DNA of 13,233 nucleotides, taken from IMG/VR virus record IMGVR_UViG_2713896898_000002, positions 1 through 13,233 of that record; one strand, given 5' to 3'. This stretch comes from a virus. Taxonomy: Duplodnaviria > Heunggongvirae > Uroviricota > Caudoviricetes. Positions 1-13,233 of this stretch are shown piece after piece. The stretch's first letter is position 1, and each line of letters opens with the position of its first letter. The position numbers and the translations under genes were made by a program. The notes beneath the pieces were generated by a model. It was not told the origin of the DNA. It did no database searches and saw nothing but the letters and a program-made list of their open reading frames with translations.

Positions 1-57
1 GGGCTGATGACTCGCCGTGAGATTGAGCGTGAAGTCTGTTTATGGGGGCAACAATGA
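1..57 (+). CDS. 3' end of an upstream lysis-cassette gene (probably the endolysin), partial
   Basis: Frame 1 is open from base 1 to a TGA at 55-57 ([18 protein letters not shown]). Its stop overlaps the Rz start as ATGA, the usual endolysin-Rz junction in lambdoid lysis cassettes. The C-terminus does not match lambda R as I recall it, so the family is unassigned. Confidence 0.4.
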
Positions 58-521
58 GCAGAGTTACCGCGATTATCTCCACACTGGTTATCTGCATCAT
101 CGTCTGCCTGTTGTTGGCTGTTAATCATTACCGTGATAACGCCATCTCCTACAAAGAGCAGCGTGACAAAAACGCCAGAGAGTTGAAGCTGGCGAACGCC
201 ACCATCGCTGACATGCAGCAGCGTCAGCGTGATGTTGCTGTGCTCGATGCAAAGTACTCGAGAGAATTAGCCAATGCGAAAGCTGAAAATGAAACTCTGC
301 GCGCTGATGTTGCCGCTGGTCGTAAGCGCCTGCGGGTCAATGCCAGTTGCTCCGCAGCCGTGCGTGAAGCCACCGGACCCACCCGCGTGGATAATGCAAC
401 CAGCCCCCGACTGGAAGACACCGCTGAACGGGATTATTTCACCCTCAGAGAGCGGCTGATGACGATGCAGATGCAACTGGAAGGGGCACAGGAGTATATC
501 CGCACTCAGTGCATTAAGTAG
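54..521 (+). CDS. Rz: i-spanin (Rz), inner-membrane spanin subunit
   Basis: Translation [49 protein letters not shown]... has an N-terminal transmembrane segment followed by a coiled-coil periplasmic domain and is near-collinear with lambda Rz as recalled. ATG 54 overlaps the upstream stop; ATG 42 (MGATMSRV...) is an alternative start. Confidence 0.9.
274..459 (+). CDS. Rz1: o-spanin (Rz1), outer-membrane lipoprotein, embedded in the +1 frame of Rz
   Basis: 61-aa ORF lying wholly inside Rz in another frame. It has a signal peptide with lipobox LVVSAC and a proline-rich mature region ([32 protein letters not shown]) very similar to lambda Rz1 as recalled. Confidence 0.9.
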
Positions 522-563
522 CCTTTTTATCGTGGTAAACATTTCGCAGGGTATGAGGTATTT

Positions 564-914
564 ATGCCATCACTAATCCCACGCGCCTGCCGTAAGCGTG
601 GATGTGCAGGCACAACAACAGACAGTTCTGGTTACTGCGATAAACATCGTGGCGAAGGATGGGTACAGCATCAACGCGGACTGAGTCGCCACCAGCGTGG
701 CTATGGCTCGAAATGGGATGCCATACGTGCGCGCATACTGAAGCGTGATAATCATCTGTGTCAGAACTGCCTGCGCAATGGGAGAGCCGTTGAAGCCAGA
801 ACGGTGGACCACATCATTCCGAAAGCTCATGGTGGCACGGATGCAGACAGTAACCTGCAGAGTCTGTGCTGGCCCTGCCATAAAGCAAAAACAGCGCGCG
901 AACGCATCAATTGA
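564..914 (+). CDS. HNH endonuclease, terminase-associated (HK97 gp74-like)
   Basis: 116-aa protein with N-terminal Cys pairs (CRKRGC...YCDKH) and a C-terminal HNH motif (DHIIPKAHGG...NLQSLCWPCH). It sits directly upstream of the small terminase gene, as in HK97-like phages. An SD-like GAGGT lies 6 nt before the ATG. Confidence 0.9.
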   Translation: MPSLIPRACRKRGCAGTTTDSSGYCDKHRGEGWVQHQRGLSRHQRGYGSKWDAIRARILKRDNHLCQNCLRNGRAVEARTVDHIIPKAHGGTDADSNLQSLCWPCHKAKTARERIN

Positions 915-1062
915 TAACAGTTCCCATCTGCAGGGGAGGGGCGGGTCAAATCTCTGCAACCCAGGCTGCTCAGGACCGCCGCCTGACCCTTCCTCACATC
1001 GCCGCAGGTTCGAAAACTTTTTTTTGGAAATGTGATTAAACGATTGATAGGTAAAACCGATT
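915..1062. other. Candidate cos / packaging-initiation region between the HNH and small terminase genes
   Basis: 148-bp non-coding gap, the only sizeable one in the packaging module, with a G-rich tract (gcaggggaggggcgggtc), GC-rich direct-ish repeats (ccgccgcctg / cgccgcagg) and a T8 run at 1018-1025. The position matches where cos lies in HK97-like genomes. Positional inference only; no cos sequence was recognised. Confidence 0.3.
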
Positions 1063-1584
1063 ATGCCAGGACCCCCGAAAACCCCGCCACGCCTGCATTT
1101 GATACGAGGCAACCCAAAACCCCCGCCACGCCTGCATTTGATACGAGGCAACCCCTCAAAACGCCCCGTTAAAGACCCCAAAAAAACCGCTAAAAAGGAT
1201 GAAAAAGGTCTCCCTAAAATTCCGCAACATTTAGGGGCACAGGGGAAGTACTGGTTCAGGCGAATGGCGGAAGAATTGAATGCGGAAGGGATCATTTCTC
1301 AGCTTGATGCGCGTGCACTCGAGTTACTGGTGGAAGCCTACACCGAATACCGGCATCACTGCGAAACACTCGATGTTGAGGGTTATACCTACCGCACGGA
1401 AACGCAGAATGGCGATGTGATGATCAAGGCACATCCGGCTGCGGCGATGAAGGCGGATGCCTGGAAGCGGATCCGGGCGATGCTTGCAGAGTTTGGTATG
1501 TCACCGGCAAGCCGGGCTAAAGTAAATACCGCCGGACCGGATGATGTTGATCCACTGGCAGAGCTTTTAAAAGCGAGAGACTGA
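1063..1584 (+). CDS. Terminase small subunit (P27 family-like)
   Basis: 173-aa protein with the N-terminal motif L(H/K)LIRGNPSKRP typical of P27-family small terminases, followed by a basic region and a C-terminal helical domain. Its stop overlaps the large terminase start as TGATG. The N-terminal motif is present twice (see repeat). Confidence 0.85.
   Translation: MPGPPKTPPRLHLIRGNPKPPPRLHLIRGNPSKRPVKDPKKTAKKDEKGLPKIPQHLGAQGKYWFRRMAEELNAEGIISQLDARALELLVEAYTEYRHHCETLDVEGYTYRTETQNGDVMIKAHPAAAMKADAWKRIRAMLAEFGMSPASRAKVNTAGPDDVDPLAELLKARD
1077..1154 (+). repeat. Two-copy 39-bp tandem direct repeat inside the 5' end of the small terminase gene
   Basis: The 34-nt core ccccgccacgcctgcatttgatacgaggcaaccc occurs at 1082-1115 and again at 1121-1154 (period 39 bp, in frame). 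It encodes the duplicated peptide (T/P)PPRLHLIRGNP(K). Confidence 0.9.
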
Positions 1585-3341
1585 TGGCAAAAGTGGCTGA
1601 CGGGATCCGCTACGCCGAACGTGTTGTTGCAGGAGAAATTGTTGCTGGCGAATTTGTCCGTCTGGCCTGCCAGCGTTTTCTTGATGATCTGAAGTACGGC
1701 GAAGAGCGGGGGATTTATTTCAGTGAACCCCGTGCACAACACATCCTGAATTTCTATAAATTTGTGCCTCATGTAAAAGGGGCGCTGGCAGGCCAGCCCA
1801 TTGAGTTGATGGACTGGCATGTATTTATCCTCATTAATATTTTTGGCTTTGTCATTCCGCTGGTAAATGAAGAGACCGGGGAAGTTGTCATGCGCAGCGA
1901 TGGCAGCGGACGCCCGGTGATGGTGCGCCGGTTCCGGACGGCCTACAACGAAGTTGCCCGTAAAAACGCAAAATCAACCCTGTCATCGGGTATCGGCCTG
2001 TATATGACGGGGGCAGATGGTGAAGGCGGTGCTGAGGTGTATTCAGCCGCAACCACGCGTGACCAGGCCAGAATTGTGTTTGAAGACGCCAAAAATATGG
2101 TCAGAAAAGCCCGGTCGACACTCGGGCGATTGTTTGATTTCAACAAGCTGGCGATCTACCAGGAGCAGAGCGCATCAAAATTTGAACCGCTTTCCTCGGA
2201 TGCAAACAACCTGGACGGTCTGAACATCCACTGCGCCATTATTGATGAGCTGCATGCACATAAAACCCGCGACGTGTGGGACGTTCTGGAAACGGCAACC
2301 GGTGCCCGTCTGCAGTCCCTGTTATTTGGCATCACCACGGCTGGCTTTAACAAGGAAGGGATTTGTTACGAGCAACGCGATTACGCCATCAAGGTATTGC
2401 GAGGCTATAACAGCGACGTGGAGGGCGCGGTAAAAGACGACTCCTACTTTGCAATTATTTACACGCTCGATGAGGGAGATGATCCGTTTGATGAAACGGT
2501 CTGGCAGAAAGCGAATCCGGGCCTGGGCATCTGTAAGCGCTGGGATGATCTGCGTCGTCTGGCGAAAAAGGCGAAGGAGCAGGTCTCGGCGCGGGTGAAT
2601 TTTTTCACGAAACACATGAATGTGTGGGTCACTGCCGAATCTGCCTGGATGGACATGATTAAGTGGGAGAAGTGCGAATACATTGCTCCACAGCATGAGC
2701 TGAAAACATATCCCATGTGGGTCGGTGTAGACCTTGCTCATAAGATTGATATCTGTGCGGCGGCAAAACTCTGGCGAACCGATAACGGACATGTTCATGC
2801 CGATTTTAAATTCTGGCTTCCGGAAGGACGGCTGGAGCGGTGCTCGCGGCAGATGGCGGAGCTTTACCGGAAATGGGCGGAGATGGATAAGCTTATCCTG
2901 ACGGATGGTGATGTTATCGATCATGCTCAGATAAAAAGTGATTTACTGGAATGGATTGGTGGTGAAAACCTCAGGGAACTGGGATTTGACCCGTGGAGCG
3001 CAATGCAGTTCAGTCTGGCGCTGGCTGAAGAAGGGATACCGCTGGTGGAAGTTCCGCAGACGGTCCGCAATCTGTCAGAGGCCATGAAGGAAACGGAATC
3101 ACTGGTCTATGCCGGGCGTTTCCATCACAGCAATCACCCGGTTATGAACTGGATGATGTCTAACGTTACGGTAAAACCGGACAAAAACGACAATATCTTC
3201 CCGAATAAATCCACGCCTGAAGCCAAAATCGACGGCCCTGTTGCGCTTTTTACGGCCATGAGCCGCTTTCTGGTAAATGGCGGGGACGTGAATGACTTTC
3301 TGTCCACGCTTGATCCTGATGAGGACCTGTTAATTCTGTGA
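1584..3341 (+). CDS. Terminase large subunit
   Basis: 585-aa ORF in the expected position and of typical size. It carries a Walker A-like ATPase motif (the GADGEGG region) and a C-terminal nuclease-type region, and is start-coupled to the small terminase. Confidence 0.93.
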   Translation: MAKVADGIRYAERVVAGEIVAGEFVRLACQRFLDDLKYGEERGIYFSEPRAQHILNFYKFVPHVKGALAGQPIELMDWHVFILINIFGFVIPLVNEETGEVVMRSDGSGRPVMVRRFRTAYNEVARKNAKSTLSSGIGLYMTGADGEGGAEVYSAATTRDQARIVFEDAKNMVRKARSTLGRLFDFNKLAIYQEQSASKFEPLSSDANNLDGLNIHCAIIDELHAHKTRDVWDVLETATGARLQSLLFGITTAGFNKEGICYEQRDYAIKVLRGYNSDVEGAVKDDSYFAIIYTLDEGDDPFDETVWQKANPGLGICKRWDDLRRLAKKAKEQVSARVNFFTKHMNVWVTAESAWMDMIKWEKCEYIAPQHELKTYPMWVGVDLAHKIDICAAAKLWRTDNGHVHADFKFWLPEGRLERCSRQMAELYRKWAEMDKLILTDGDVIDHAQIKSDLLEWIGGENLRELGFDPWSAMQFSLALAEEGIPLVEVPQTVRNLSEAMKETESLVYAGRFHHSNHPVMNWMMSNVTVKPDKNDNIFPNKSTPEAKIDGPVALFTAMSRFLVNGGDVNDFLSTLDPDEDLLIL

Positions 3342-3499
3342 AACAGCTTATTACTGATATGACCGGGCTGATCGGTTTCGGTCTGCTCACTGCTGGCGTT
3401 TATCTGTATGCAGGTCTGCCAGCGTCTCTGATGTTGTCTGGCTGTTTGTTGCTGCTTTATGCACTGGTGGTGTCCATGAGGAGAAAACATGCTTCTTGA
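3338..3499 (+). CDS. Small hydrophobic ORF (53 aa from GTG 3338; 46 aa from ATG 3359), putative membrane protein
   Basis: Below the 60-aa cutoff of the ORF track. Translation VKQLITDMTGLIGFGLLTAGVYLYAGLPASLMLSGCLLLLYALVVSMRRKHAS* suggests two hydrophobic helices and a basic C-tail. GTG 3338 overlaps the large terminase stop as GTGA (coupling-type junction), and the 3' end overlaps the portal start by 11 nt. It fills an otherwise unexplained 147-nt gap. Confidence 0.35.
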   Translation: MKQLITDMTGLIGFGLLTAGVYLYAGLPASLMLSGCLLLLYALVVSMRRKHAS

Positions 3500-4715
3500 T
3501 GCTCTGTTTCGCAGTGAGCCTCTGGAAAATCCCTCGATTCCGGTAACCGGAGAGGCCGCTGAGACGGATAATATTTTTGCCCGGGAAGTGTATGTCAGTC
3601 CGGAAACATCCATGAAGCTGGCTGCTGTCTATGCCTGTATTTATGTTATTTCATCCAGTGTGGCTCAGATGCCCCTGCATGTGATGCGAAAAACGAATGA
3701 GCATGTTCAGCCGGCACGCGATCATCCGTTGTTCTGGCTCGTTCATGATGAACCTAATGCCTGGCAGACCAGCTATAAGTGGCGGGAACTGAAGCAGCGT
3801 CATGTGCTGGGGTGGGGCAATGGTTATACGTGGGTAAAACGCAATCGTCGTGGCGAGGTTACCAGCCTTGAATGCTGTATGCCATGGGAAACCACGTTAC
3901 TTAACACCGGTGGGCGTCATACTTACGGGGTGTATAACGAAGAGGGGGCATTTGCGGTAAGTCCGGACGACATGATCCATATCAGGGCGCTGGGAAACAA
4001 TCAGAAAATGGGACTGAGCCCGATCATGCAGCATGCTGAAACCATTGGTATGGGAATGAGTGGCCAGCAGTATACCAGCGCCTTTTTTAACGGTAATGCC
4101 CGTCCTGCCGGTATTATTTCTGTGAAAAATGAACTGAACGAACAGAGCTGGGGCAGGCTTAAAAATATGTGGCAGCGGGCGGTGACAGCGCTTCGCAGCC
4201 AGGAAAATAAAACCATGCTGCTGCCTGCGCAACTGGATTACCGCGCTCTGACAGTTTCTCCGGTGGATGCTCAGATCATTGATATGACCAAGCTGAACAG
4301 GTCGATGATTGCCGGGATTTTTAATGTCCCGGCGCACATGATTAATGACCTGGAAAAAGCCACATTTTCGAATATTACGCAGCAGGCGATTCAGTTTGTT
4401 CGCTACACGATGATGCCCTGGGTTGCGAACTGGGAGCAGGAGCTTAACCGTCGCCTGTTTACCCGTACAGAACGGGCTGCCGGGTATTACGTTCGTTTCA
4501 ACCTCACGGGGTTGCTCCGTGGGACCCCACAGGAGCGTGCGCAGTTCTATCACTTTGCCATTACAGATGGCTGGATGAGCCGGAATGAAGCCAGGGCATT
4601 TGAGGATATGAACCCGGTTGACGGTCTGGATGAAATGCTGGTCAGCGTAAATGCAGCAAATCCGTTGAATAACTTTAAAGATACAAAAGGCAAAGAGGAA
4701 AAGAACGATGAATGA
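3489..4715 (+). CDS. Portal protein (HK97 family)
   Basis: 408-aa ORF directly after the large terminase, of the size and character of HK97-family portals. SD AGGAG at 3478-3482 precedes the ATG; the 3' end overlaps the protease gene. Confidence 0.93.
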   Translation: MLLDALFRSEPLENPSIPVTGEAAETDNIFAREVYVSPETSMKLAAVYACIYVISSSVAQMPLHVMRKTNEHVQPARDHPLFWLVHDEPNAWQTSYKWRELKQRHVLGWGNGYTWVKRNRRGEVTSLECCMPWETTLLNTGGRHTYGVYNEEGAFAVSPDDMIHIRALGNNQKMGLSPIMQHAETIGMGMSGQQYTSAFFNGNARPAGIISVKNELNEQSWGRLKNMWQRAVTALRSQENKTMLLPAQLDYRALTVSPVDAQIIDMTKLNRSMIAGIFNVPAHMINDLEKATFSNITQQAIQFVRYTMMPWVANWEQELNRRLFTRTERAAGYYVRFNLTGLLRGTPQERAQFYHFAITDGWMSRNEARAFEDMNPVDGLDEMLVSVNAANPLNNFKDTKGKEEKNDE

Positions 4716-5307
4716 CCGTGAAACGCGCTGTTACAGCGGGGAGGTGCGGGCGGAACAATATGATAATGCCCCGACCCACATTCTGGGGTATGGCTCGGTA
4801 TTTAACAGTCGTTCAGAACCTCTGTGGGGATTTCGTGAAATCATCAAGCCGGGGGCTTTTGACGATGTACTGAATGATGATGTACGTGGCTTGTTTAATC
4901 ATGATCCTAATTTCATTCTCGGACGAAGTTCTGCCGGCACGTTGTCATTGTCGGTGGATGAACGCGGTTTACGTTATGACATTGTTGCACCGGATACTCC
5001 GACTATTTGTGACCTGGTGCTGTCTCCAATGTTGCGTGGTGACATTAATCAGTCCTCATTCGCGTTTCGTGTCGCCCGTGATGGAGAGAGCTGGTATGAA
5101 GACGACGAGGGGATTGTTATCCGGGAAATCACGCGCATTTCCCGTCTGTATGACGTCAGCCCGGTGACATATCCGGCCTATCAGGACGCAGACTCTGGTG
5201 TCCGCTCAATGAAAGCCTGGCAGGAAGCGCGGGCGAGTGGTGCGCTGAAGAAAGCTGTTAATGAACGAATGGCGCGTGAGCGCCTTTTGACCCTTCTGAA
5301 TGCATAA
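4708..5307 (+). CDS. Prohead maturation protease (HK97 family)
   Basis: 199-aa ORF between portal and capsid genes with HK97 prohead-protease-like sequence (e.g. ...GYGSVFN..., ...LFNHDPNFILGRS...) and the conserved HK97-type gene order. Confidence 0.88.
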   Translation: MNDRETRCYSGEVRAEQYDNAPTHILGYGSVFNSRSEPLWGFREIIKPGAFDDVLNDDVRGLFNHDPNFILGRSSAGTLSLSVDERGLRYDIVAPDTPTICDLVLSPMLRGDINQSSFAFRVARDGESWYEDDEGIVIREITRISRLYDVSPVTYPAYQDADSGVRSMKAWQEARASGALKKAVNERMARERLLTLLNA

Positions 5308-5321
5308 GGATACTACTGACG

Positions 5322-6539
5322 ATGAAACTTCATGAGATGAAGCAAAAACGAAACACCATTGCAAAGGATATGCGTGCACTGCATGAAAAAATTGGTGATA
5401 ACGCATGGACTGATGAGCAACGGGCAGAGTGGAACAGGGCGAAAGCTGAGCTGGATGCGCTGGATGAGCAAATCGCCCGTGAAGAAGAGTTGCGCCGTCA
5501 GGATCAGGCATATGTGGATGAGTCCGGGCCGGAAGAGCGCCAGAATAATGAGGCGGAGAACGGGAAAAAGGCGGTGGAAGAGAAGCGCGCTGCGGCATTT
5601 AACCGTTTTCTGCGTGCCGGATTTGCAGAACTGAATGCTGAAGAGCGTAATCTGATGCGTGAACTGCGGGCTCAGAGTGTAACAACGGATTCTCAGGGCG
5701 GATATACGGTGCCCACGCAGATGCGTAACAAAATCATTGACACCATGAAGGCTTATGGCGGGATTGCCAGTGTGGCGCAACTTCTGACCACGTCAACCGG
5801 GCAGGATATCACCTGGTCAACGTCTGACGGCACGACTGAAGAGGGCGAACTGCTGGCGGAAAATACAGCCGCAACGGAACAGGATGTGACGTTCGGGACT
5901 GCTATTCTGGGGGCTAAAAAGCTGTCATCAAAAATAATTCGTGTGTCCAATGAGCTGCTCCAGGACAGTGGGGTAGATATTGAATCTTATCTGGCAAACC
6001 GTATTGCCCAGCGTATTGGTCGTGGAGAGGCAAAATATCTGGTTCAGGGGACCGGAACGGGATCACCGTTACAGCCAAAAGGGCTGGCAGCGTCGGTGAC
6101 GGGAACTATCCAGACTGCAGCCTCTGCCGCTTTCACCTGGAAAGAAATGAATGCCCTGAAACATGCCATTGATCCGGCATATCGTGGTGGGCCGAAATAC
6201 CGCTGGGCATTCAATGATGCCACATTGCAGACTATTGAAGAGATGGAGGATGGACAGAAACGCCCGTTATGGCTGCCGGATATTGCAGGCGGTACGCCGG
6301 CTACTGTGCTGGGGATCCCTTATGTTATTGATCAGGCTATTGACGGGATTGGTACCGGGAAAAAATTCATTTTCCTGGGGGATTTCAACCGCTTTATCAT
6401 TCGCCGCGTTACTTATATGGAACTGAAACGTCTGGTTGAGCGTTATGCTGAGTTTGATCAGGTGGCATTTCTGGCTTTCCATCGTTTTGACTGTGTGCTG
6501 GAAGATGTGGCAGCCATTAAGGCGCTTACTGGCAAATAA
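5322..6539 (+). CDS. Major capsid protein (HK97 fold) with N-terminal delta/scaffold domain
   Basis: 405-aa ORF. The first ~110 residues are highly charged, coiled-coil-like (EQRAEWNRAKAELDALDEQIAREEELRRQ...), as in the HK97 gp5 delta domain; the remainder resembles an HK97-type capsid protein. It follows the protease gene. Confidence 0.93.
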   Translation: MKLHEMKQKRNTIAKDMRALHEKIGDNAWTDEQRAEWNRAKAELDALDEQIAREEELRRQDQAYVDESGPEERQNNEAENGKKAVEEKRAAAFNRFLRAGFAELNAEERNLMRELRAQSVTTDSQGGYTVPTQMRNKIIDTMKAYGGIASVAQLLTTSTGQDITWSTSDGTTEEGELLAENTAATEQDVTFGTAILGAKKLSSKIIRVSNELLQDSGVDIESYLANRIAQRIGRGEAKYLVQGTGTGSPLQPKGLAASVTGTIQTAASAAFTWKEMNALKHAIDPAYRGGPKYRWAFNDATLQTIEEMEDGQKRPLWLPDIAGGTPATVLGIPYVIDQAIDGIGTGKKFIFLGDFNRFIIRRVTYMELKRLVERYAEFDQVAFLAFHRFDCVLEDVAAIKALTGK

Positions 6540-6557
6540 CCACACGTTGTTCTGTTA

Positions 6558-6583
6558 CAGACCGCGCCGACGCGGTTTTTTTA
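6558..6583 (+). terminator. Intrinsic terminator-like hairpin downstream of the capsid gene
   Basis: Stem accgcg (6561-6566), loop ccga, stem cgcggt (6571-6576), followed by a T7 run (6576-6582), 22 nt after the capsid stop codon. Confidence 0.6.
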
Positions 6584-6584
6584 T

Positions 6585-6604
6585 GCCCGCACAGTGTTGC
6601 GGGC
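6585..6604 (+). promoter_or_regulatory. Second hairpin abutting the Shine-Dalgarno of the head-tail connector gene
   Basis: gcccgca (6585-6591), loop cagtgt, tgcgggc (6598-6604). The SD AGGAG (6605-6609) follows immediately, with the ATG at 6616. Confidence 0.4.
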
Positions 6605-6615
6605 AGGAGTTTCTG

Positions 6616-6933
6616 ATGGCAGCAATAGTTGAAAAACTCAGGGCGCAGTGCCGTATTGATACAGATGATGCAACTGATGATGAGTTACTGATGCTGTATT
6701 TCCGGGCGGCCTGCCGCAAGGCAGAAAATTTTATCAACCGTAAGCTTTATGAGGAGACGGTGCCGGAAGGTGATCCTGAAGGGGTGCTTATAGCTGATGA
6801 TGTTTTGCTGGCGCTCATGTTGCTGGTCGGACACTGGTACGAAAACCGGGAAAATTCCTCAGATGTCAGCAAGGCACCAGTCCCGTTTGGTTTTTCTTCT
6901 CTGCTGGAGCCTTATCGTTTTATTCCTTTGTAG
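6616..6933 (+). CDS. Head-tail connector protein (gp6-like)
   Basis: 105 aa from ATG 6616, with SD AGGAG 6 nt upstream. The track ORF beginning at 6436 overlaps the capsid gene and terminator and is not the true start. The sequence (...DELLMLYFRAACRKAENFINRKL...LLALMLLVGHWYENRE...) fits the gp6-like connector family pattern. Confidence 0.8.
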   Translation: MAAIVEKLRAQCRIDTDDATDDELLMLYFRAACRKAENFINRKLYEETVPEGDPEGVLIADDVLLALMLLVGHWYENRENSSDVSKAPVPFGFSSLLEPYRFIPL

Positions 6934-6941
6934 GAGGAACC

Positions 6942-7280
6942 ATGCAGGCGGGCAGATTACGTGATCGTGTGGTTATTCTGAATGCCACCACCGTTCGGTC
7001 TCCGTCAGGGCACCCTGTGGAAACAATGACGGAGGGGGCAACCATATGGGCAGAAGTTAAGGGGATCAGTGGCAGGGAGAGAATATCCGGAGGCGCAGAA
7101 ACAGCTCAGGCTACAGTGAGGGTCTGGATGAGATTCCGGCGAGATGTAACAGCAACTTCATGTCTGAAAGTGCTGACTGGTGCATTCAAAGGCGCGATTC
7201 TGAGTATAGACGGTCCGCCGATACCGGATGCCCGTGCCACACGGCTTGAGATACTCTGTTCTCAGAAGGGGAATGTGTGA
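6942..7280 (+). CDS. Head closure / head-tail adaptor protein (SPP1 gp16-like)
   Basis: 112-aa ORF (MQAGRLRDRVVILNATTVRSPSGHPVETMTEGATIWAEVKGISGRE...) matching the typical pattern of head-tail joining proteins. Position is conserved. Confidence 0.75.
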   Translation: MQAGRLRDRVVILNATTVRSPSGHPVETMTEGATIWAEVKGISGRERISGGAETAQATVRVWMRFRRDVTATSCLKVLTGAFKGAILSIDGPPIPDARATRLEILCSQKGNV

Positions 7281-7726
7281 TGGATTTCAGTCTTGATTTT
7301 TCAGGTCTGGCGGATATTGCACGGGATCTGGAGACGCTCAGCAGGGCAGAAAACAATAAGGTTCTGCGCGATGCCACCCGTGCCGGTGCTGAAGTTATGC
7401 GGGATGCAGTTGTTGAACGTGCGCCGGAGCGAACCGGGAAACTGAAGAAAAATGTGGTTGTTCTCACGCAGCGTTCAAAGCGTCGGGGAGAAATTATCTC
7501 GGGTGTCCACATTCGCGGACGGAACCTGCGAACCGGAAACAGTGATAACAGCATGAAAGCCAGCGATCCCCGAAATGCGTTTTACTGGCGCTTTGTGGAG
7601 CTGGGAACGATAAACATGCCCGCGCATCCATTCATTCGCCCGGCTTTCGATACGACAGAGGAGCTGGCGGCGCAGGTTGCCATACAGCGAATGAATCAGG
7701 CTATTGATGAGGTCTTAAGTAAATGA
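7277..7726 (+). CDS. HK97 gp10-family neck / tail-component protein
   Basis: 149-aa ORF whose start overlaps the upstream stop (GTGATG). Contains a ...RAPERTGKLKKN... motif and a C-terminal ...AHPFIRPA... motif typical of HK97-gp10-like proteins. Confidence 0.75.
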   Translation: MMDFSLDFSGLADIARDLETLSRAENNKVLRDATRAGAEVMRDAVVERAPERTGKLKKNVVVLTQRSKRRGEIISGVHIRGRNLRTGNSDNSMKASDPRNAFYWRFVELGTINMPAHPFIRPAFDTTEELAAQVAIQRMNQAIDEVLSK

Positions 7727-8067
7727 GGGAAGCCACACTGTATTCCCTGCTGTCTCAATTGGCCGGAGGACAGGTTTATCCTTATGTGGTCCCGCTGACG
7801 GAGGGAAAGCCTGCGGTATCTCCGCCGTGGCTGGTGTTTTCTGTGGTGTCTGACACGGCGTCTGATGTGCTTGATGGTCAGGCTGAATCCAGAATTACCG
7901 TGCAGATCGATGTCTGGGCAACGGTGCCTGATGACGCAGATGATATCCGAGAACAGGCGCTTGATGCGGTAAGGCAACTTGTACCCTCCGTTATTTCTAA
8001 AACGCAGGGTTATGATCCTGATTCCCGTCTGAGCAGAGCCACGCTTGAATTTCAGGTAATAGCCTGA
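7723..8067 (+). CDS. Tail terminator / tail completion protein (DUF3168-like)
   Basis: 114-aa ORF immediately upstream of the major tail gene. The pattern ...LYSLLS...VYPYVVP...PWLVFSVVSD...ITVQIDVWA... resembles the DUF3168 family. Confidence 0.6.
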   Translation: MREATLYSLLSQLAGGQVYPYVVPLTEGKPAVSPPWLVFSVVSDTASDVLDGQAESRITVQIDVWATVPDDADDIREQALDAVRQLVPSVISKTQGYDPDSRLSRATLEFQVIA

Positions 8068-8087
8068 GGTCGTTAATGATTTTACCC

Positions 8088-8114
8088 ACCCGCCGCTGGC
8101 GGGTTTTTTATTTT
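8088..8114 (+). terminator. Intrinsic terminator-like hairpin upstream of the major tail gene
   Basis: Stem acccgcc (8088-8094), loop gct, stem ggcgggt (8098-8104), then TTTTTTATTTT (8104-8114). It sits between the tail terminator stop and the major tail SD. Confidence 0.55.
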
Positions 8115-8126
8115 CAGGAGACGAGT

Positions 8127-8831
8127 ATGTCCTCTAATTTTGAGCGTTCGCAACTGACGAAAATTATGATTTCGTCTGCACCGGTAACAGCAGAAACCCT
8201 GGATTCTGCCAGCTATCTTGGCCTGAGCTGTACAATCAAAGAGGTGCAGTTTACCGCAGGACAAAAGCAGGATATTGATGTCACCACGCTGTGTTCTGTT
8301 GAGCAGGAAAATATTAACGGTCTTGGTGCCGCGTCAGAGATTTCCATGTCAGGCAACTTTTACCTCAATGCTGCCCAGAACGCGTTGCGCAGTGCCTATG
8401 ACAATGACACCACGTATGGCTTTAAAGTTATTTTTCCGTCAGGAAACGGATTTACCTTTATGGCAGAGGTGCGTCAGCATACCTGGTCTGCAGGAACCAA
8501 TGGTGTTGTGGCTGCAACGTTTTCCCTGCGCCTGAAAGGTAAACCTGTGCTGATGACAGAGCCGCTGAAAGTGAAGGTCGATTTAAACAGCACGCTGCAG
8601 GTTTCTGCCGGAGCGAAACTCGAAATGATGGTTGAGGCTGCCGGTGGTGTGCCGCCTTATTCTTATGCCTGGAAAAAAGGTGGTTCTCCTGTTTCCGGAC
8701 AGACGGCGGCAACGTTCAGTAAGGCATCAGCAGCATCCGGTGATGCGGGTGCGTATACCTGCGAGATTTCTGATTCAGCAAGCCCGGTTAACAAAGTGAC
8801 CTCCACTTCCTGCACTGTTACCGTCAGTTAA
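8127..8831 (+). CDS. Major tail protein with C-terminal Ig-like domain
   Basis: 234 aa from ATG 8127, with SD AGGAG at 8116-8120. The track ORF start at 8076 would read through the terminator hairpin and is rejected. The C-terminal ~85 residues (KVKVDLNSTLQVSAGAKLEMMVEAAGGVPPYSYAWKKGGSPVSG...GAYTCEISDSA...VTVS) have an Ig-like signature, as seen on lambda gpV and other siphovirus tail-tube proteins. Confidence 0.85.
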   Translation: MSSNFERSQLTKIMISSAPVTAETLDSASYLGLSCTIKEVQFTAGQKQDIDVTTLCSVEQENINGLGAASEISMSGNFYLNAAQNALRSAYDNDTTYGFKVIFPSGNGFTFMAEVRQHTWSAGTNGVVAATFSLRLKGKPVLMTEPLKVKVDLNSTLQVSAGAKLEMMVEAAGGVPPYSYAWKKGGSPVSGQTAATFSKASAASGDAGAYTCEISDSASPVNKVTSTSCTVTVS

Positions 8832-8845
8832 TGAGGATAGATGTG

Positions 8846-9217
8846 ATGACTAAAAATATCCGTAATCTGGCACTGGCAACGATGTCGGGGTTTCGCCATA
8901 AAACTGTTGATGTGCCTGAATGGGAAGGGGCAACGGTTGTGTTACGGGAACCTTCTGCAGAAGCCTGGTTGCGCTGGCAGGAGATCGTTAAAGCAAAAGA
9001 TGATGAGACACCGTTATCCGTTGCGGAGCGCGCCCGCCGAAATCTGGAGGCGGACGTTGAACTGTTCATTGATGTTCTGTGTGATACCGGGCTGCAACCT
9101 GTATTTTCAGAGGATGATCGTGAACAGGTGATTGCCGTGTATGGCCCGGTGCATGCACGGCTTCTTCGCCAGTCTCTGGAACTGATCAGTGATGCCGGAG
9201 AGGTTAAAAAAAAGTAG
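8846..9217 (+). CDS. Tail assembly chaperone (gpG-like), zero-frame product
   Basis: ORF directly after the major tail gene, ending ...AGEVKKK* at TAG 9215-9217. SD GAGGA at 8834-8838 precedes ATG 8846; ATG 8831 is an alternative start. The position and acidic character fit gpG-like chaperones. Confidence 0.8.
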   Translation: MTKNIRNLALATMSGFRHKTVDVPEWEGATVVLREPSAEAWLRWQEIVKAKDDETPLSVAERARRNLEADVELFIDVLCDTGLQPVFSEDDREQVIAVYGPVHARLLRQSLELISDAGEVKKK

Positions 9218-9519
9218 CGCTTCCGGGGATGCGTTTTCTGATGATGCTGGCGCTCAGGATGGGGCGCACATTGTCAGAGTTACGCCGGGAAATGTCCGCA
9301 TCAGAAATCATGATGTGGGCAGAATTTGACAGGTTCAGCCCGCTGGGGGACGAACGGGCTGATATCCGGGCTGCCCAGATTGTTTCAGCTGTTTACGGTG
9401 CGCAGGGGGTCAAAGTGCCACTGAATGATGCGCTTCTTCAGTGGGAGCAGGAGCAGACAGAAGGCGCCTCAGATCCATTTGCCGGACTGGAAAACGCGCT
9501 TTTAATAGTGTCTCAGTGA
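8846..9519 (+). CDS. Tail assembly chaperone GT fusion (gpGT-like), produced by -1 frameshift at 9208-9214
   Basis: After a -1 slip the reading continues ...GEVKKK-VALPGMRFLMMLALRMGRTLSELRREMSASEIMMWAEFDRF... to TGA 9517-9519. The G/GT frameshift pair directly upstream of the tape measure gene is a conserved feature of long-tailed phages. Confidence 0.75.
9208..9214 (+). promoter_or_regulatory. -1 programmed ribosomal frameshift slippery heptamer A_AAA_AAG
   Basis: In the G frame the last codons are GTT AAA AAA AAG TAG. The heptamer A AAA AAG (9208-9214) is the same slippery motif as in E. coli dnaX. The -1 frame has a TAA at 9205-9207 just before the site and is then open to 9519. Confidence 0.75.
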
Positions 9520-9527
9520 GTCAACAT

Positions 9528-9549
9528 AACCGCTTCGGCGGTTTTTTTT
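9528..9549 (+). terminator. Intrinsic terminator-like hairpin with UUCG tetraloop between the GT and tape measure genes
   Basis: Stem aaccgc (9528-9533), loop ttcg (9534-9537), stem gcggtt (9538-9543), then a T-run through 9549. Confidence 0.55.
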
Positions 9550-9559
9550 CGTCCGGAGA

Positions 9560-12500
9560 ATGAGTGTGGCGACATTACGTGAACTGATTATTAAAATTTC
9601 GGCAAACTCCCGGTCATTCCAGTCAGAGATCGCCCGGGCTTCGCGTATGGGGCAGGATTACTACCGCACCATGCAGAACGGAGGCCGGCAGTCTGCTGCT
9701 GCATCCCGTGAAATGCGGCGTGCACTGGCAGAAGTGACGGATCAGATAAATACGGCGAAGTCTTCGGCACTGAATATGGCGGGGGCATTTGCCGGTGCTT
9801 TTGCCACTGGACATCTAATATCTCTTGCGGATGAATGGAGTTCAGTAAATGCCCGTCTGAAGCAGGCCACGCAGTCAAGTGATGATTTTCAGGCATCACA
9901 ACGTGAATTAATGGCAATCAGCCAGAGAACGGGGACGGCTTTTTCTGATAACGCCAGCCTTTTTGCCCGCTCTGCAGCTTCCATGCGGGAGTATGGTTAC
10001 AGTTCTGAGGAGGTACTGAAAGTCACCGAGGCGCTCTCCACGGGCCTGAAATTATCCGGTGCCAGTACAGCAGAAGCCAGTTCGGTGATCACGCAGTTCA
10101 GCCAGGCACTGGCGCAGGGAGTGCTGCGCGGTGAAGAATTTAACGCCGTGAATGAGAGCGGTGATCGTGTTATTCGTGCGCTGGCCGTGGGAATGGGCGT
10201 TGCCCGTAAGGATCTGAAGGCCATGGCGGATAACGGAAAACTGACCGCCGATAAGGTTGTTCCTGCACTGATTAGTCAGCTTGGGGCGTTGCGTGATGAA
10301 TATGCAGCAATGCCTGATACGGTTTCATCCTCTGCAACCAAAGTTGAAAACGCCTTTATGGCCTGGGTTGGTGGTGCGAACGAGGCAAGCGGAGTGACGA
10401 AGACGCTCTCCGGGGTGCTGAATGGTATTGCAGGCAATATTGACACCGTGGCAACCGCTGCCGGTGCTCTGGTTGCCGTCGGGGTAGCCCGATATTTTGG
10501 CAATATGGCGTCTTCTGCTGGATCTGCAACTGCCGGATTAATTACTGCAGCCAGAAACGAAGTGGCTCTTGCGGAAGCGCAGCTCCGGGGGACGCAGATA
10601 GCAACAGCCAGGGCGCGTGCGGCGGTTTATCGTGCGCAACAGGCGGTTGCTGCTGCTCGCGGTACCGAAAGGCAGGCAGCCGCAGAATCGAAACTGGCTG
10701 CTGCCCAGGCGTCACTTACCCGTAATATTGCGGCCAGAACAGCAGCACAGACAACACTGAATAATGTCACGTCAGTGGGGAGTCGTCTGTTAAGTGGGGC
10801 ACTGGGACTGGTTGGGGGTGTGCCGGGGCTTGTCATGCTGGGGGCTGCGGCCTGGTACACGATGTATCAGAATCAGGAGCAGGCCAGAGAATCTGCACGC
10901 CAGTATGCCGCAACAATCGACGAAATTCGCCAGAAAACGTCGGCAATGTCGCTTCCTGAAGCGTCAGATAATGAGGAAAAGACGCGGCAGGCACTGGAGG
11001 AACAAAATCGCCTGATTAGCGAACAGGAAGGAAAAATTCGCGGACTGAAAAATCAAATTGCTGATTATCAACGTTGGCTTGATGAAAGTTCGCAGAGTGG
11101 TTCGGGTGCTGAAATCATCCTTAAAGGGCTTGCAGAAGCAACAAATCAACTGGCAGTTGAACAGTCTCGCCTAACTCAAATGCAGGGCAAAGCGCAATCC
11201 ATTCAGGATGTGCTTGCCGGGCTGGAGGAGCGACGGGTGGCGTTGATCCGTCAACAGGCGGCGGAACAAAACAAAGCGTATCAGTCCCTGTTGATCATGA
11301 ACGGGCAGCATACCGAGTTTAATCGCCTTCTCGGGCTTGGTAATGAATTACTTCAGCAGCGACAGGGGCTGGTGACTGCACCATTACGGCTGCCACAGGC
11401 CACCCTGGATGATAAGCAGCAGACTGCACTGAATAACAGCAAGCGCGAACTGGCTCTGTCCCGTCTGAAGGGGGAAGCGCGTGAGCGTGCCCGACTGGGC
11501 TATGTTGCGGATGATCTTGGTTTTGTGGGGGAGGCGTATCAGACAGCCAGACAGAATTATATCAATAACTCACTGGATGCATGGCGAAATAACCAGGCAA
11601 ATAAACCCAAAACACATAAAAAGACCGAAGCGGAAAAAACAGAAGATATTTATAAACAGCTGATTAAACAGCAAAAAGAACAAATAGCACTGGCAGGGCA
11701 AAATACTGAACTGGCTAAGATGAAATATCAGGTCAGTCAGGGCGAATTATCAACCCTGTCAGAAGCGCAGAAAAAAACGCTTTTACAGAATGCGGCACTC
11801 ATCGACCAGAAAAAAATTCGCGAGCAGCTTGCCGCGTATGAAAGCAGTCTGGCGGACAGTAACGCCAGTGTCAGAGCATCAAATGAGGCTCAGTTACTGG
11901 GATATGGTGAAGGCTCACGGATGCGTGAACGACTTCAGGAAATGTGGAGTATCCGGCAGGCGTTTGAGCAGAAAAATAATGAGCTGCTGAGACAGTATCA
12001 GACCGGAGAAATTGAAGAATCCCTGTGGAAACAGGAAAAAGCACTGAATGAAAAATATCTGGAAGAGCGTCTCAACGATCAGCAGGATTATTATGCAAAG
12101 GCTGATGCTTTACGCAGTAACTGGAATGCCGGACTCCAGGAGGGACTGACGAACTGGGCAGACAGTGCCACTGATTATGCTTCGCAGGCGGCAGATGCTG
12201 TCGTTTCCACTATGGACGGGCTGGTATCAAATATTTCCGATGCACTGGCCGGGAATGTTGTGGACTGGAGAAACTGGGGGAGTTCAATTCTCCAGGAAGT
12301 TTCAAAAATTCTGATGAACGCTGCCATCGTTAACGGGCTGAAGTCACTTTCCAAAAGCATGTCCGGTGCCGGAGGATGGCTTGGTACGGTCGGCGACTGG
12401 CTTTCCGGTGCAGTGGCAAACGCAAAAGGTGGTGTTTACACATCGGCAAATCTGAGTGCTTACAGTAACACCATTGTGGATACACCGACGTATTTTGCTT

Positions 12501-12778
12501 TTGCGAAAGGTGCCGGGCTGATGGGCGAGGCCGGGCCTGAAGCTATCATGCCACTGACTCGGGCAGCGGACGGCTCTCTTGGAGTCAGAGCCATTGGCAA
12601 TGTGAATGGTGGCGGTGGATTTGTTTATTCTCCCGTGTATCACATCAGCATTCAGAATCAAGGGAGCAATGGCGAGACAGATACGCAGTCAGCCAGGGGG
12701 CTGGTGGATCTGATCGACAGCAGGGTTGTGTCAATTATGCAGTCATCACGTCGGGACGGAGGATTATGCAGTGCCTGA
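9560..12778 (+). CDS. Tail tape measure protein (lambda gpH-like)
   Basis: 1072-aa ORF, Ala/Gln-rich and largely helical, with internal hydrophobic segments. The C-terminal region (...WADSATDYASQAADAVVSTMDG...NWRNW...RDGGL...) resembles the lambda gpH C-terminus as recalled. It follows G/GT and precedes gpM-like. GTG 9566 (6 nt after SD GGAGA) is an alternative start to ATG 9560. Confidence 0.93.
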   Translation: MSVATLRELIIKISANSRSFQSEIARASRMGQDYYRTMQNGGRQSAAASREMRRALAEVTDQINTAKSSALNMAGAFAGAFATGHLISLADEWSSVNARLKQATQSSDDFQASQRELMAISQRTGTAFSDNASLFARSAASMREYGYSSEEVLKVTEALSTGLKLSGASTAEASSVITQFSQALAQGVLRGEEFNAVNESGDRVIRALAVGMGVARKDLKAMADNGKLTADKVVPALISQLGALRDEYAAMPDTVSSSATKVENAFMAWVGGANEASGVTKTLSGVLNGIAGNIDTVATAAGALVAVGVARYFGNMASSAGSATAGLITAARNEVALAEAQLRGTQIATARARAAVYRAQQAVAAARGTERQAAAESKLAAAQASLTRNIAARTAAQTTLNNVTSVGSRLLSGALGLVGGVPGLVMLGAAAWYTMYQNQEQARESARQYAATIDEIRQKTSAMSLPEASDNEEKTRQALEEQNRLISEQEGKIRGLKNQIADYQRWLDESSQSGSGAEIILKGLAEATNQLAVEQSRLTQMQGKAQSIQDVLAGLEERRVALIRQQAAEQNKAYQSLLIMNGQHTEFNRLLGLGNELLQQRQGLVTAPLRLPQATLDDKQQTALNNSKRELALSRLKGEARERARLGYVADDLGFVGEAYQTARQNYINNSLDAWRNNQANKPKTHKKTEAEKTEDIYKQLIKQQKEQIALAGQNTELAKMKYQVSQGELSTLSEAQKKTLLQNAALIDQKKIREQLAAYESSLADSNASVRASNEAQLLGYGEGSRMRERLQEMWSIRQAFEQKNNELLRQYQTGEIEESLWKQEKALNEKYLEERLNDQQDYYAKADALRSNWNAGLQEGLTNWADSATDYASQAADAVVSTMDGLVSNISDALAGNVVDWRNWGSSILQEVSKILMNAAIVNGLKSLSKSMSGAGGWLGTVGDWLSGAVANAKGGVYTSANLSAYSNTIVDTPTYFAFAKGAGLMGEAGPEAIMPLTRAADGSLGVRAIGNVNGGGGFVYSPVYHISIQNQGSNGETDTQSARGLVDLIDSRVVSIMQSSRRDGGLCSA

Positions 12779-13112
12779 GTCTGAAGTTTTTAACTGGATC
12801 CCCCGCGAGGGGATGGAGACGACACGAAAGCCATCTGTTATTACGGTAAAGTTCGGTGACGGATATGAACAGCGACGGGCTGGTGGTCTGAATGCGGATC
12901 TGAAAACGTTTAAACCGGTGTTTCGTGTCACAGATGAATATTCCCGTGCTGCGCTGGACAGTTTTTTATCCCGTCATGCCGGGATACGTGCTTTTTTGTG
13001 GCGTCCGCCAAAACACAACAGAACCGTCCGGGTTGTCTGCAGGGAGTGGAGTATTTCGGATAATGCCATGTATACCGATTTTAACTGTACCTTTGAAGAG
13101 GTCACTCACTGA
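12771..13112 (+). CDS. Minor tail protein (lambda gpM-like)
   Basis: The sequence ...KPSVITVKFGDGYEQRRAGGLNADLKTF...FLWRPP... aligns with lambda M (...VRKVRFGDGYSQRAPAGLNANLKTY...FLWTPP...) as recalled. Proposed start is GTG 12771, with SD GGAGGA at 12758-12763; the track start TTG 12726 lies inside the tape measure gene. Start codon uncertain. Confidence 0.8.
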   Translation: MPESEVFNWIPREGMETTRKPSVITVKFGDGYEQRRAGGLNADLKTFKPVFRVTDEYSRAALDSFLSRHAGIRAFLWRPPKHNRTVRVVCREWSISDNAMYTDFNCTFEEVTH

Positions 13113-13233
13113 TGCAGGATATACAGCAGGAAACACTGAATGAGTGTACAAAAGCGGAGCAATCCGCGCTGGTCGTGCTCTGGGAAGTCGATCTGACAGA
13201 GGTCGGCGGAGAGCGTTATTTTTTCTGTAATGA
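13112..13233 (+). CDS. Minor tail protein (lambda gpL-like), 5' partial, runs off the window
   Basis: MQDIQQETLNECTKAEQSALVVLWEVDLTEVGGERYFFCN is near-identical to the recalled lambda L N-terminus (MQDIRQETLNECTRAEQSASVVLWEIDLTEVGGERYFFCNE...). Its ATG overlaps the gpM-like stop as TGATG. Confidence 0.85.
   Translation, partial: MQDIQQETLNECTKAEQSALVVLWEVDLTEVGGERYFFCN

Follow-up and report, generated by a model that had tools for sequence, protein, structure and literature searches.

A conserved small gene encoding a predicted membrane hairpin between the large terminase and portal genes of HK97-type prophages

In phage T4, assembly of the portal initiator on the inner membrane depends on a viral chaperone, gp40 (PMC9958956). 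Here we describe a small gene whose product may act in a comparable setting in HK97-type phages: an open reading frame (ORF) of 53 codons plus stop, located between the large terminase and portal genes in a 13,233-nucleotide stretch of DNA (positions 1 to 13,233 of IMG/VR virus record IMGVR_UViG_2713896898_000002; hereafter the window). Gene calls and family matches identify the window as the late region of an Escherichia coli HK97-type prophage. The small ORF (3338–3499, + strand) follows the large terminase gene (TerL; 1584–3341, + strand) and precedes the portal gene (PF04860; 3489–4715, + strand), with which it is co-inherited. The likeness to gp40, a phage factor acting with the portal protein gp20 at the inner membrane, is one of proposed logic only, and we claim no homology between the two. 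Profile searches with the small protein returned no T4-type family, no gp40 sequence having been compared, and T4 gene 40 is not adjacent to the T4 portal gene.

The small gene and its family are already catalogued, as hypothetical or membrane proteins without an assigned function. The identical protein is RefSeq WP_000811487.1 ('hypothetical protein') and UniProt A0A0G3JUA5, and this exact sequence is recorded on more than 1000 contigs; a 46-residue form has been deposited as a 'putative membrane protein', and the ORF is annotated in phage Evi and other sequenced coliphages. Of 5426 complete E. coli genomes, 630 contain a 1-kb stretch around it at 95–98% identity, and in the E. coli records that we list the PGAP label is 'hypothetical protein' (WP_000811487.1 in the prophage of E. 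coli FDAARGOS_943). The protein matches the PHROG 7105 profile over nearly its whole length (E = 9.4e-20, residues 1–52 on profile positions 1–52 of 52), relatives from five other phages match the same profile at E = 1e-22 to 1e-26, and position and length also agree with that family, whose members are ~50–60 residues long and lie between TerL and an HK97-family portal. Far weaker matches were obtained to PHROG 502 ('membrane protein', E = 1.3e-6) and PHROG 4810 (E = 3e-4). The preliminary description of the window called the ORF unannotated, which is true of the ORF track then at hand and not of public records in general. Pfam gave no match at E ≤ 1, the PADLOC defence-system models gave none, and NCBIfam gave only a chance-level match (PVV_CTERM, E = 0.1, 12.4 bits against a cut-off of 27).

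Taken together, the observations set out below are best explained by a real late gene that encodes a membrane hairpin, is linked to the portal and is not a moron. We put this overall explanation forward tentatively, with somewhat more doubt than confidence in the whole, and the strength of its parts differs considerably.

Conservation and coding signature of the small ORF

Translation from GTG 3338 gives VKQLITDMTGLIGFGLLTAGVYLYAGLPASLMLSGCLLLLYALVVSMRRKHAS, and the TGA stop (3497–3499) lies inside the portal gene. Start codon and TerL stop share the sequence GTGA (3338–3341, + strand), an arrangement suited to termination-reinitiation coupling, the end overlaps the portal start by 11 nt (3489–3499, + strand), and the TerL stop and portal start are separated by a 147-nt gap; coordinates, overlaps and gap length are all as first described. 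A random frame of 53 codons would be open with P ~0.08, so the sequence alone proves nothing and the case rests on relatives. A word-indexed protein search with the small protein returned near-identical E. coli copies only, and an exhaustive HMMER search returned just 20 cluster representatives; because these protein searches gave few relatives, we gathered them through the portal gene.

Searches with tblastn found ORFs of 52–53 codons in the same slot, encoding products 45–62% identical to the window protein, in Morganella phage IME1369_02, Edwardsiella phage EPP-1, Klebsiella phages, Salmonella phage F1055 and SfV. The portal-alignment search, restricted to one genome per species, yielded 61 loci from Enterobacterales, Halomonas, Marinobacter, Pseudomonas and Idiomarina, 58 of them usable, with portals 57–84% identical to that of the window. 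An intact hydrophobic ORF of 47–69 codons lies between TerL and portal in ~55 of these 58; of the exceptions, one is a degraded copy from an insect endosymbiont, another lacks TerL and a third has a shortened tail. The ORF is also intact in 79 of 80 IMG/VR viral contigs, and the peptides align without gaps over positions 1–47.

These relatives also settle which start codon is used. Codon 1 is ATG in 50 and GTG in seven of 57 loci, and the residues that follow it include fully conserved K/R2 and D/E7, whereas Met8 (ATG 3359, the start of the 46-residue form) is I, V, T or L in relatives. Because codon 1 and the residues next to it are conserved and Met8 is variable, the product is taken to be 53 residues long; of the 46–53 codon range originally proposed, the longer form stands and the shorter does not.

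The substitution pattern is that of a coding sequence. Among 54 distinct nucleotide versions, none has a stop in the small-ORF frame, while the other two forward frames are interrupted in 54 and 26 of them, and variability at codon positions 1, 2 and 3 is 0.30, 0.22 and 0.46. The ratio pN/pS is 0.52 in frame and 0.99 and 1.42 off frame; dN/dS, calculated from pairs with unsaturated dS, is 0.33, as compared with 0.32 for the last 150 codons of TerL and 0.22 for the first 150 codons of the portal gene. Within the E. coli-type copies, 12 synonymous and two conservative replacement polymorphisms are found where 27% synonymous would be expected by chance (P = 8e-6). The preliminary description had named stops or frameshifts in relatives, or a lack of coding-type conservation, as the signs of a non-coding spacer; we looked for these and found instead a frame that is kept open and constrained at the amino acid level. 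From these comparisons, segment 3338–3499 is almost certainly a bona fide late phage protein-coding gene.

We note that a second, antisense ORF (3134–3613, – strand, 159 codons) runs opposite the whole of the small ORF and reaches into the 3′ end of TerL on one side and the 5′ end of the portal gene on the other. Since none of 30 relatives that share the geometry keeps it open, it was rejected as spurious. In the genome of Symbiopectobacterium purcellii, at least five copies of the head module are present with identical small ORFs, and in the related endosymbiont Ca. S. endolongispinus the copy is degraded, with TerL truncated and the 5′ end of the small ORF lost.

Translational coupling, portal linkage and predicted architecture

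The arrangement expected for translational coupling, suggested earlier for the start of the ORF, is present at both of its ends and is kept in most of 57 loci. At the start, 39 of 56 loci have a 4-nt overlap with the TerL stop and the others a spacing of –1 to +9 nt; at the end, the stop and the portal start overlap by 4–11 nt in 53 of 57. In the window, the portal Shine-Dalgarno sequence GAGGAG (3478–3483, + strand) lies within the AGG AGA (Arg-Arg) codons of the small ORF, and relatives have a purine tract at this place, AGAAGGGGGA. In Halomonas and Marinobacter the tail is 5–16 residues longer, and the basic residues R47, K50 and R51 no longer coincide with the ribosome-binding site and yet are retained; the tail is therefore also selected at the protein level. 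Between 2900 and 3900, the coding strand shows nothing that resembles a promoter, nor is there any terminator-like site, and GC content is 0.49–0.51 both within the ORF and in its flanks. By its arrangement, the small gene is a link in what would be a translationally coupled late-operon chain running from TerL through the small protein to the portal. Such a chain, together with old and stable synteny, rules out a classical moron. The stretch of RNA has no Rfam match at E ≤ 1 and folds no better than shuffled sequence (z-score –0.77), and a structured-RNA or non-coding spacer was rejected, the coding substitution pattern being clear.

Natural mosaic joints associate the small ORF with the portal gene. 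In phage phi467, 98% identity in TerL extends over residues 1–574, and similarity then stops at about window position 3287; beyond this joint lie a different two-helix protein of 60 residues (PHROG 502, E = 7e-27) and a portal that is merely 28% identical. In some 300 further E. coli genomes, the match to the query is confined to its TerL part, and nearly all matches in the records sampled from these stop at window positions 3280–3286; in no sampled E. coli record does a match end at the junction of small ORF and portal gene. The last ~18 codons of TerL (3287–3341, + strand) lie downstream of this recurrent joint and are inherited with the small ORF and the portal.

The divergence of the three genes agrees with this. 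Over 54 loci, small-protein divergence is more closely correlated with portal divergence (Spearman 0.50, partial 0.48) than with divergence of the TerL body (0.25, partial 0.20), and the last 20 residues of TerL likewise track the portal (0.71) rather than the TerL body (0.30), a pattern that fits a portal-docking C-terminal tail. Individual pairs illustrate the range: loci L032 and L034 differ by 66% in TerL, 4% in the portal and 11% in the small protein, and loci L007 and L042 by 6%, 19% and 46%, respectively. In three metagenomic contigs (L158–L160), whose portal is 51% identical to that of the window, a 1.4-kb insertion parts TerL from the small ORF, which still overlaps the portal start. 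Judged from these joints and divergences, the end of TerL (its last ~18 codons), the small ORF and the portal gene are one genetic unit. The head module as a whole seems to combine with different tail types, since SfV, which we take to be a myovirus, carries it, as do coliphages with vB_EcoS (siphovirus) names; related loci also differ in their lysis genes.

The insertion in contigs L158–L160 (3691–4913 in L158) carries a 109-codon ORF and a gene for a 271-residue protein in which a glucosaminidase domain is fused to a 2Fe-2S ferredoxin domain, an odd cargo for a packaging module.

The preliminary description proposed a two-helix membrane peptide with a basic C-terminal tail, and both hydropathy and structure prediction agree with it. 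Hydropathy, column statistics and AlphaFold2 place a glycine-rich helix 1 at codons 8–25 (3359–3412, + strand; G10, G13, G15 and G20), an invariant glycine at the hairpin turn in codon 26 (3413–3415, + strand), a strongly hydrophobic helix 2 at codons 27–46 (3416–3475, + strand; L31, G35 and A42 conserved), and a basic tail, MRRKHAS, at codons 47–53 (3476–3496, + strand). Across the family, G13, G20, G26 and G35 are invariant and Y22, L31 and A42 nearly so, position 24 at the turn is polar (Q, K or R), and the tail after residue 46 has a mean net charge of +3. On the Kyte-Doolittle scale the signal is strong for residues 27–46 and marginal for residues 8–23. AlphaFold2, run with a 14-sequence alignment, predicts helices at residues 2–25 and 27–52 with a break at G26 (mean pLDDT 86). 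The prediction is thus a hairpin of helices inserted in the cytoplasmic membrane, its two ends and basic tail facing the cytoplasm. Profile searches of the PDB with two alignments gave only chance matches (E > 1) and no solved structure, and in a fold search of BFVD every match had E > 1, as expected for a query that is a 53-residue hairpin.

Slot proteins of other phages and the surrounding genes

A small membrane protein inside a packaging module had at first seemed unexpected, but analogous two-helix proteins fill the slot between TerL and portal in many phages. PHROG 502 proteins occupy it in phiP27 (as a 'putative integral membrane protein'), ST64B (Sb3), SfI, SfII, SfIV, phiKO2 (gp3), PY54, Yersinia phages and a Marinobacter phage. 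They resemble the small protein in slot, length (~60 residues), two hydrophobic helices and equivalent helix-1 glycines, and they too are swapped together with their own portal. They differ from it in sequence (~23% identity), in the turn motif (YPPAG rather than YLxFG), in having an acidic or glycine-rich tail rather than a short, basic one, and in a partner portal that is 28% identical. Alignment of the PHROG 7105 and PHROG 502 profiles with hhalign gave E = 8.8e-5 and a probability of 60% (23% identity over 48 columns), values that membrane-helix composition can inflate; this suggests that common ancestry is plausible, for what are short hydrophobic sequences. In records ON470580, ON470603, ON470584 and PQ793804, the PHROG 502 slot protein is labelled 'head-tail joining protein W', which is likely a mis-annotation, a lambda name transferred by position only.

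Sampling phages with increasingly distant portals shows how far slot proteins extend (percentages are portal identity to the window). Ralstonia phage YO190_1 (57%) encodes a clear homologue of 52 residues, and Vibrio phage K308 (36%) a 67-residue two-helix protein that matches both PHROG 7105 and PHROG 502. Two phages of Gram-positive hosts have two-helix ORFs in the slot: Bacillus phage phi4I1 (31%), with an unannotated ORF of 53 codons at 2218–2379 (PHROG 1142), and Clostridium phage phiCT19406C (31%), with one of 68 codons at 2150–2356 (PHROG 26072 and 1142). In both, the slot follows genes for a P27-type small terminase and TerL and precedes that of an HK97-family portal, as in the window. 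Their products match PHROG 502 at E = 0.04 and DUF1056 (PF06341) below threshold (E ~0.1, 13.4 bits against a 22.2-bit cut-off), and in Pfam and PHROG searches the window protein matches neither DUF1056 nor PHROG 1142; the Firmicutes slot proteins may be analogues rather than homologues of the small protein. No slot ORF is present in Serratia phage LittleDog (38%), Moraxella phage Mcat30 (31%), Klebsiella phage Kp4866-6 (29%), HK97 (28%), a Methylopila prophage (28%) or Pseudomonas phage BR123a (27.5%), and a Streptococcus suis phage (33%) has a toxin-antitoxin pair and a soluble 114-residue protein there instead of a two-helix ORF. Because several phages with homologous portals have no slot ORF, we regard the small protein as accessory, widespread and not universal.

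Annotation of the slot is uneven. In the SfV record (NC_003444), the small ORF (2289–2450) is unannotated and the portal gene is started at 2392, 16 codons upstream of and in frame with GTG 2440; this portal start is probably wrong, since GTG 2440 aligns with the conserved portal N-terminus of relatives.

The other features of the window are those of a late region. Genes for Rz (42–521) and an HNH endonuclease (564–914) are followed by a 148-nt GC-rich non-coding gap (915–1062), which is where a putative cos site would be expected in HNH-dependent HK97-type packaging, and by the gene for a P27-type small terminase (1063–1584). Downstream of the portal gene are ORFs in the prohead-protease (4708–5307) and major-capsid (5322–6539) positions, both named from near-identical prophages, and a long ORF in the tape-measure position (9560–12778). 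Protease and capsid ORFs are separated by 14 nt without overlap, and with this gap and that between the HNH endonuclease and small terminase genes, the earlier statement that every other junction overlaps was a loose one. A slippery A-rich run, GTT AAA AAA AAG TAG (9202–9217), closes an ORF at 8831–9217, and the ORF after it (9229–9519) sits in the –1 frame. The pair looks like the programmed frameshift of G/GT-type tail chaperones, in the usual arrangement ahead of the ORF in the tape-measure position. In the otherwise near-identical prophage of E. coli FDAARGOS_943, an IS21 element (istA, istB) lies between the head-closure and gp10-like genes (10504–12473 of that locus) and the antiterminator Q gene is frameshifted; this copy is probably defective.

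Candidate roles for the small protein

We propose that synthesis of the small protein would coincide in time and place with that of the portal protein and that the two would work together at the inner membrane, the small protein possibly as a small anchor or chaperone when the portal ring assembles and the prohead is initiated, or alternatively in docking the packaging motor or vertex at the membrane. A portal-linked membrane role is inferred because both the mosaic joints and the natural insertion leave the small ORF on the portal gene and not on TerL. With this genetic linkage and the T4 analogy as its basis, such a role at the cytoplasmic membrane is a serious possibility, and one that we still consider rather doubtful. 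More doubtful again is its extension to whole families, in which PHROG 7105, and perhaps PHROG 502, PHROG 4810, PHROG 1142 and DUF1056, would be portal-specific membrane partners that tether or chaperone the portal ring or the portal-terminase vertex. Several points weigh against a portal-linked membrane hairpin. Physical adjacency alone yields some co-inheritance, and helix 1 is merely marginally hydrophobic. The homologous portals of HK97, LittleDog, BR123a, Mcat30, Kp4866-6 and the Methylopila prophage do without a slot ORF, and these phages presumably assemble normally. Membrane insertion is predicted and portal contact putative, and a literature search found no functional study of the small protein or its slot-mates.

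The small protein could instead be a late membrane effector whose target is not the portal, acting in lysis timing (holin- or antiholin-like), in depolarising the membrane or blocking superinfection, or in anti-defence, with the slot providing only coupled late expression. Like class II holins and other small membrane-active peptides it is small, with two hydrophobic helices, a predicted N-in/C-in topology, small-residue faces and a basic tail (cytoplasmic by prediction in the small protein); it is missing from many phages with homologous portals, as an accessory function would be, and the category 'moron, auxiliary metabolic gene and host takeover' contains its weak relative PHROG 502, although only by virtue of the generic name 'membrane protein'. 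However, class II holins are encoded in lysis cassettes and the small ORF lies in a head operon, and near-identical prophages have a complete lysis cassette elsewhere. Neither Pfam nor PHROGs gave a holin family match, no defence-system model matched, and the protein does not align with the holin annotated in the FDAARGOS_943 prophage, on which ground a holin identity was rejected. Nor does an effector predict an association with the portal that resists recombination and persists even after an insertion at the junction. We consider an effector unlikely, although far from negligible. A gene encoded in the head module and co-inherited with the portal could also specify a minor virion protein that travels in the head, at the portal, and passes into the inner membrane of the host as the DNA enters; small pilot or ejection proteins are found near the portal in other phages (P22 gp7, gp16 and gp20; SPP1 gp7). 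This is improbable for an almost wholly hydrophobic hairpin of 53 residues, which would make a poor soluble capsid passenger, for a head module that is paired with different tail types, and for a protein with no relative in any solved phage structure in the PDB profile searches.

The preliminary description suggested a moron-like insertion or a small regulatory or superinfection-related peptide. A lysogenic-conversion gene, recently inserted and expressed from the prophage, would account for the small size and membrane targeting of the product and for the empty junction in HK97, but the ORF lacks its own promoter and terminator, does not differ from its flanks in GC content and overlaps a neighbouring gene at each end. 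It is syntenic in Enterobacterales, Halomonas, Marinobacter, Pseudomonas, Idiomarina and Ralstonia, down to 57% portal identity, and diverges in step with the portal; as an ancient and fixed component of the head module in both Gamma- and Betaproteobacteria, it is very improbably a moron. Still harder to accept is that the peptide is irrelevant and that translation or RNA structure here only sets the rate of portal translation. The overlaps at both ends and the portal Shine-Dalgarno sequence inside the ORF are what such a spacer would show; the dN/dS value, the predominance of synonymous polymorphisms (12 of 14), the constraint on individual residues (the invariant glycines, K/R2, D/E7, Y22, L31 and A42), the Rfam and folding results, and the retention of the basic tail away from the ribosome-binding site are not. 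We give equally little credence to the idea that the small protein corresponds to lambda gpW, a head-tail joining protein whose gene lies between those of terminase A and portal B, despite the shared position between large terminase and portal genes and the several GenBank records that name the PHROG 502 slot product after it. Lambda gpW is a soluble protein of 68 residues, whereas the small protein is a predicted hydrophobic hairpin. No Pfam family, gpW included, matches it at E ≤ 1, no PHROG head-tail joining family does, and further downstream the module already encodes an adaptor and a head-closure protein; the identity was rejected on sequence and hydrophobicity.

The discovery of one more small phage gene is itself ordinary; what a portal-linked membrane hairpin does is a modestly interesting question. 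The small gene appears to be a fixed, selected partner of the portal gene and not stray cargo, and two-helix slot proteins recur in many HK97-type head modules, from those of E. coli phages to those of Bacillus and Clostridium phages, where annotators miss the genes (as in the SfV and phi4I1 records) or mislabel them as 'head-tail joining protein W'. To our knowledge, membrane-associated head initiation or packaging is documented mainly for T4. If the portal-linked role is true, head initiation or packaging would be membrane-associated across a very large set of temperate HK97-type phages, infecting Gram-negative and Gram-positive hosts alike, a membrane step that is not in the textbook pathways of HK97 and lambda.

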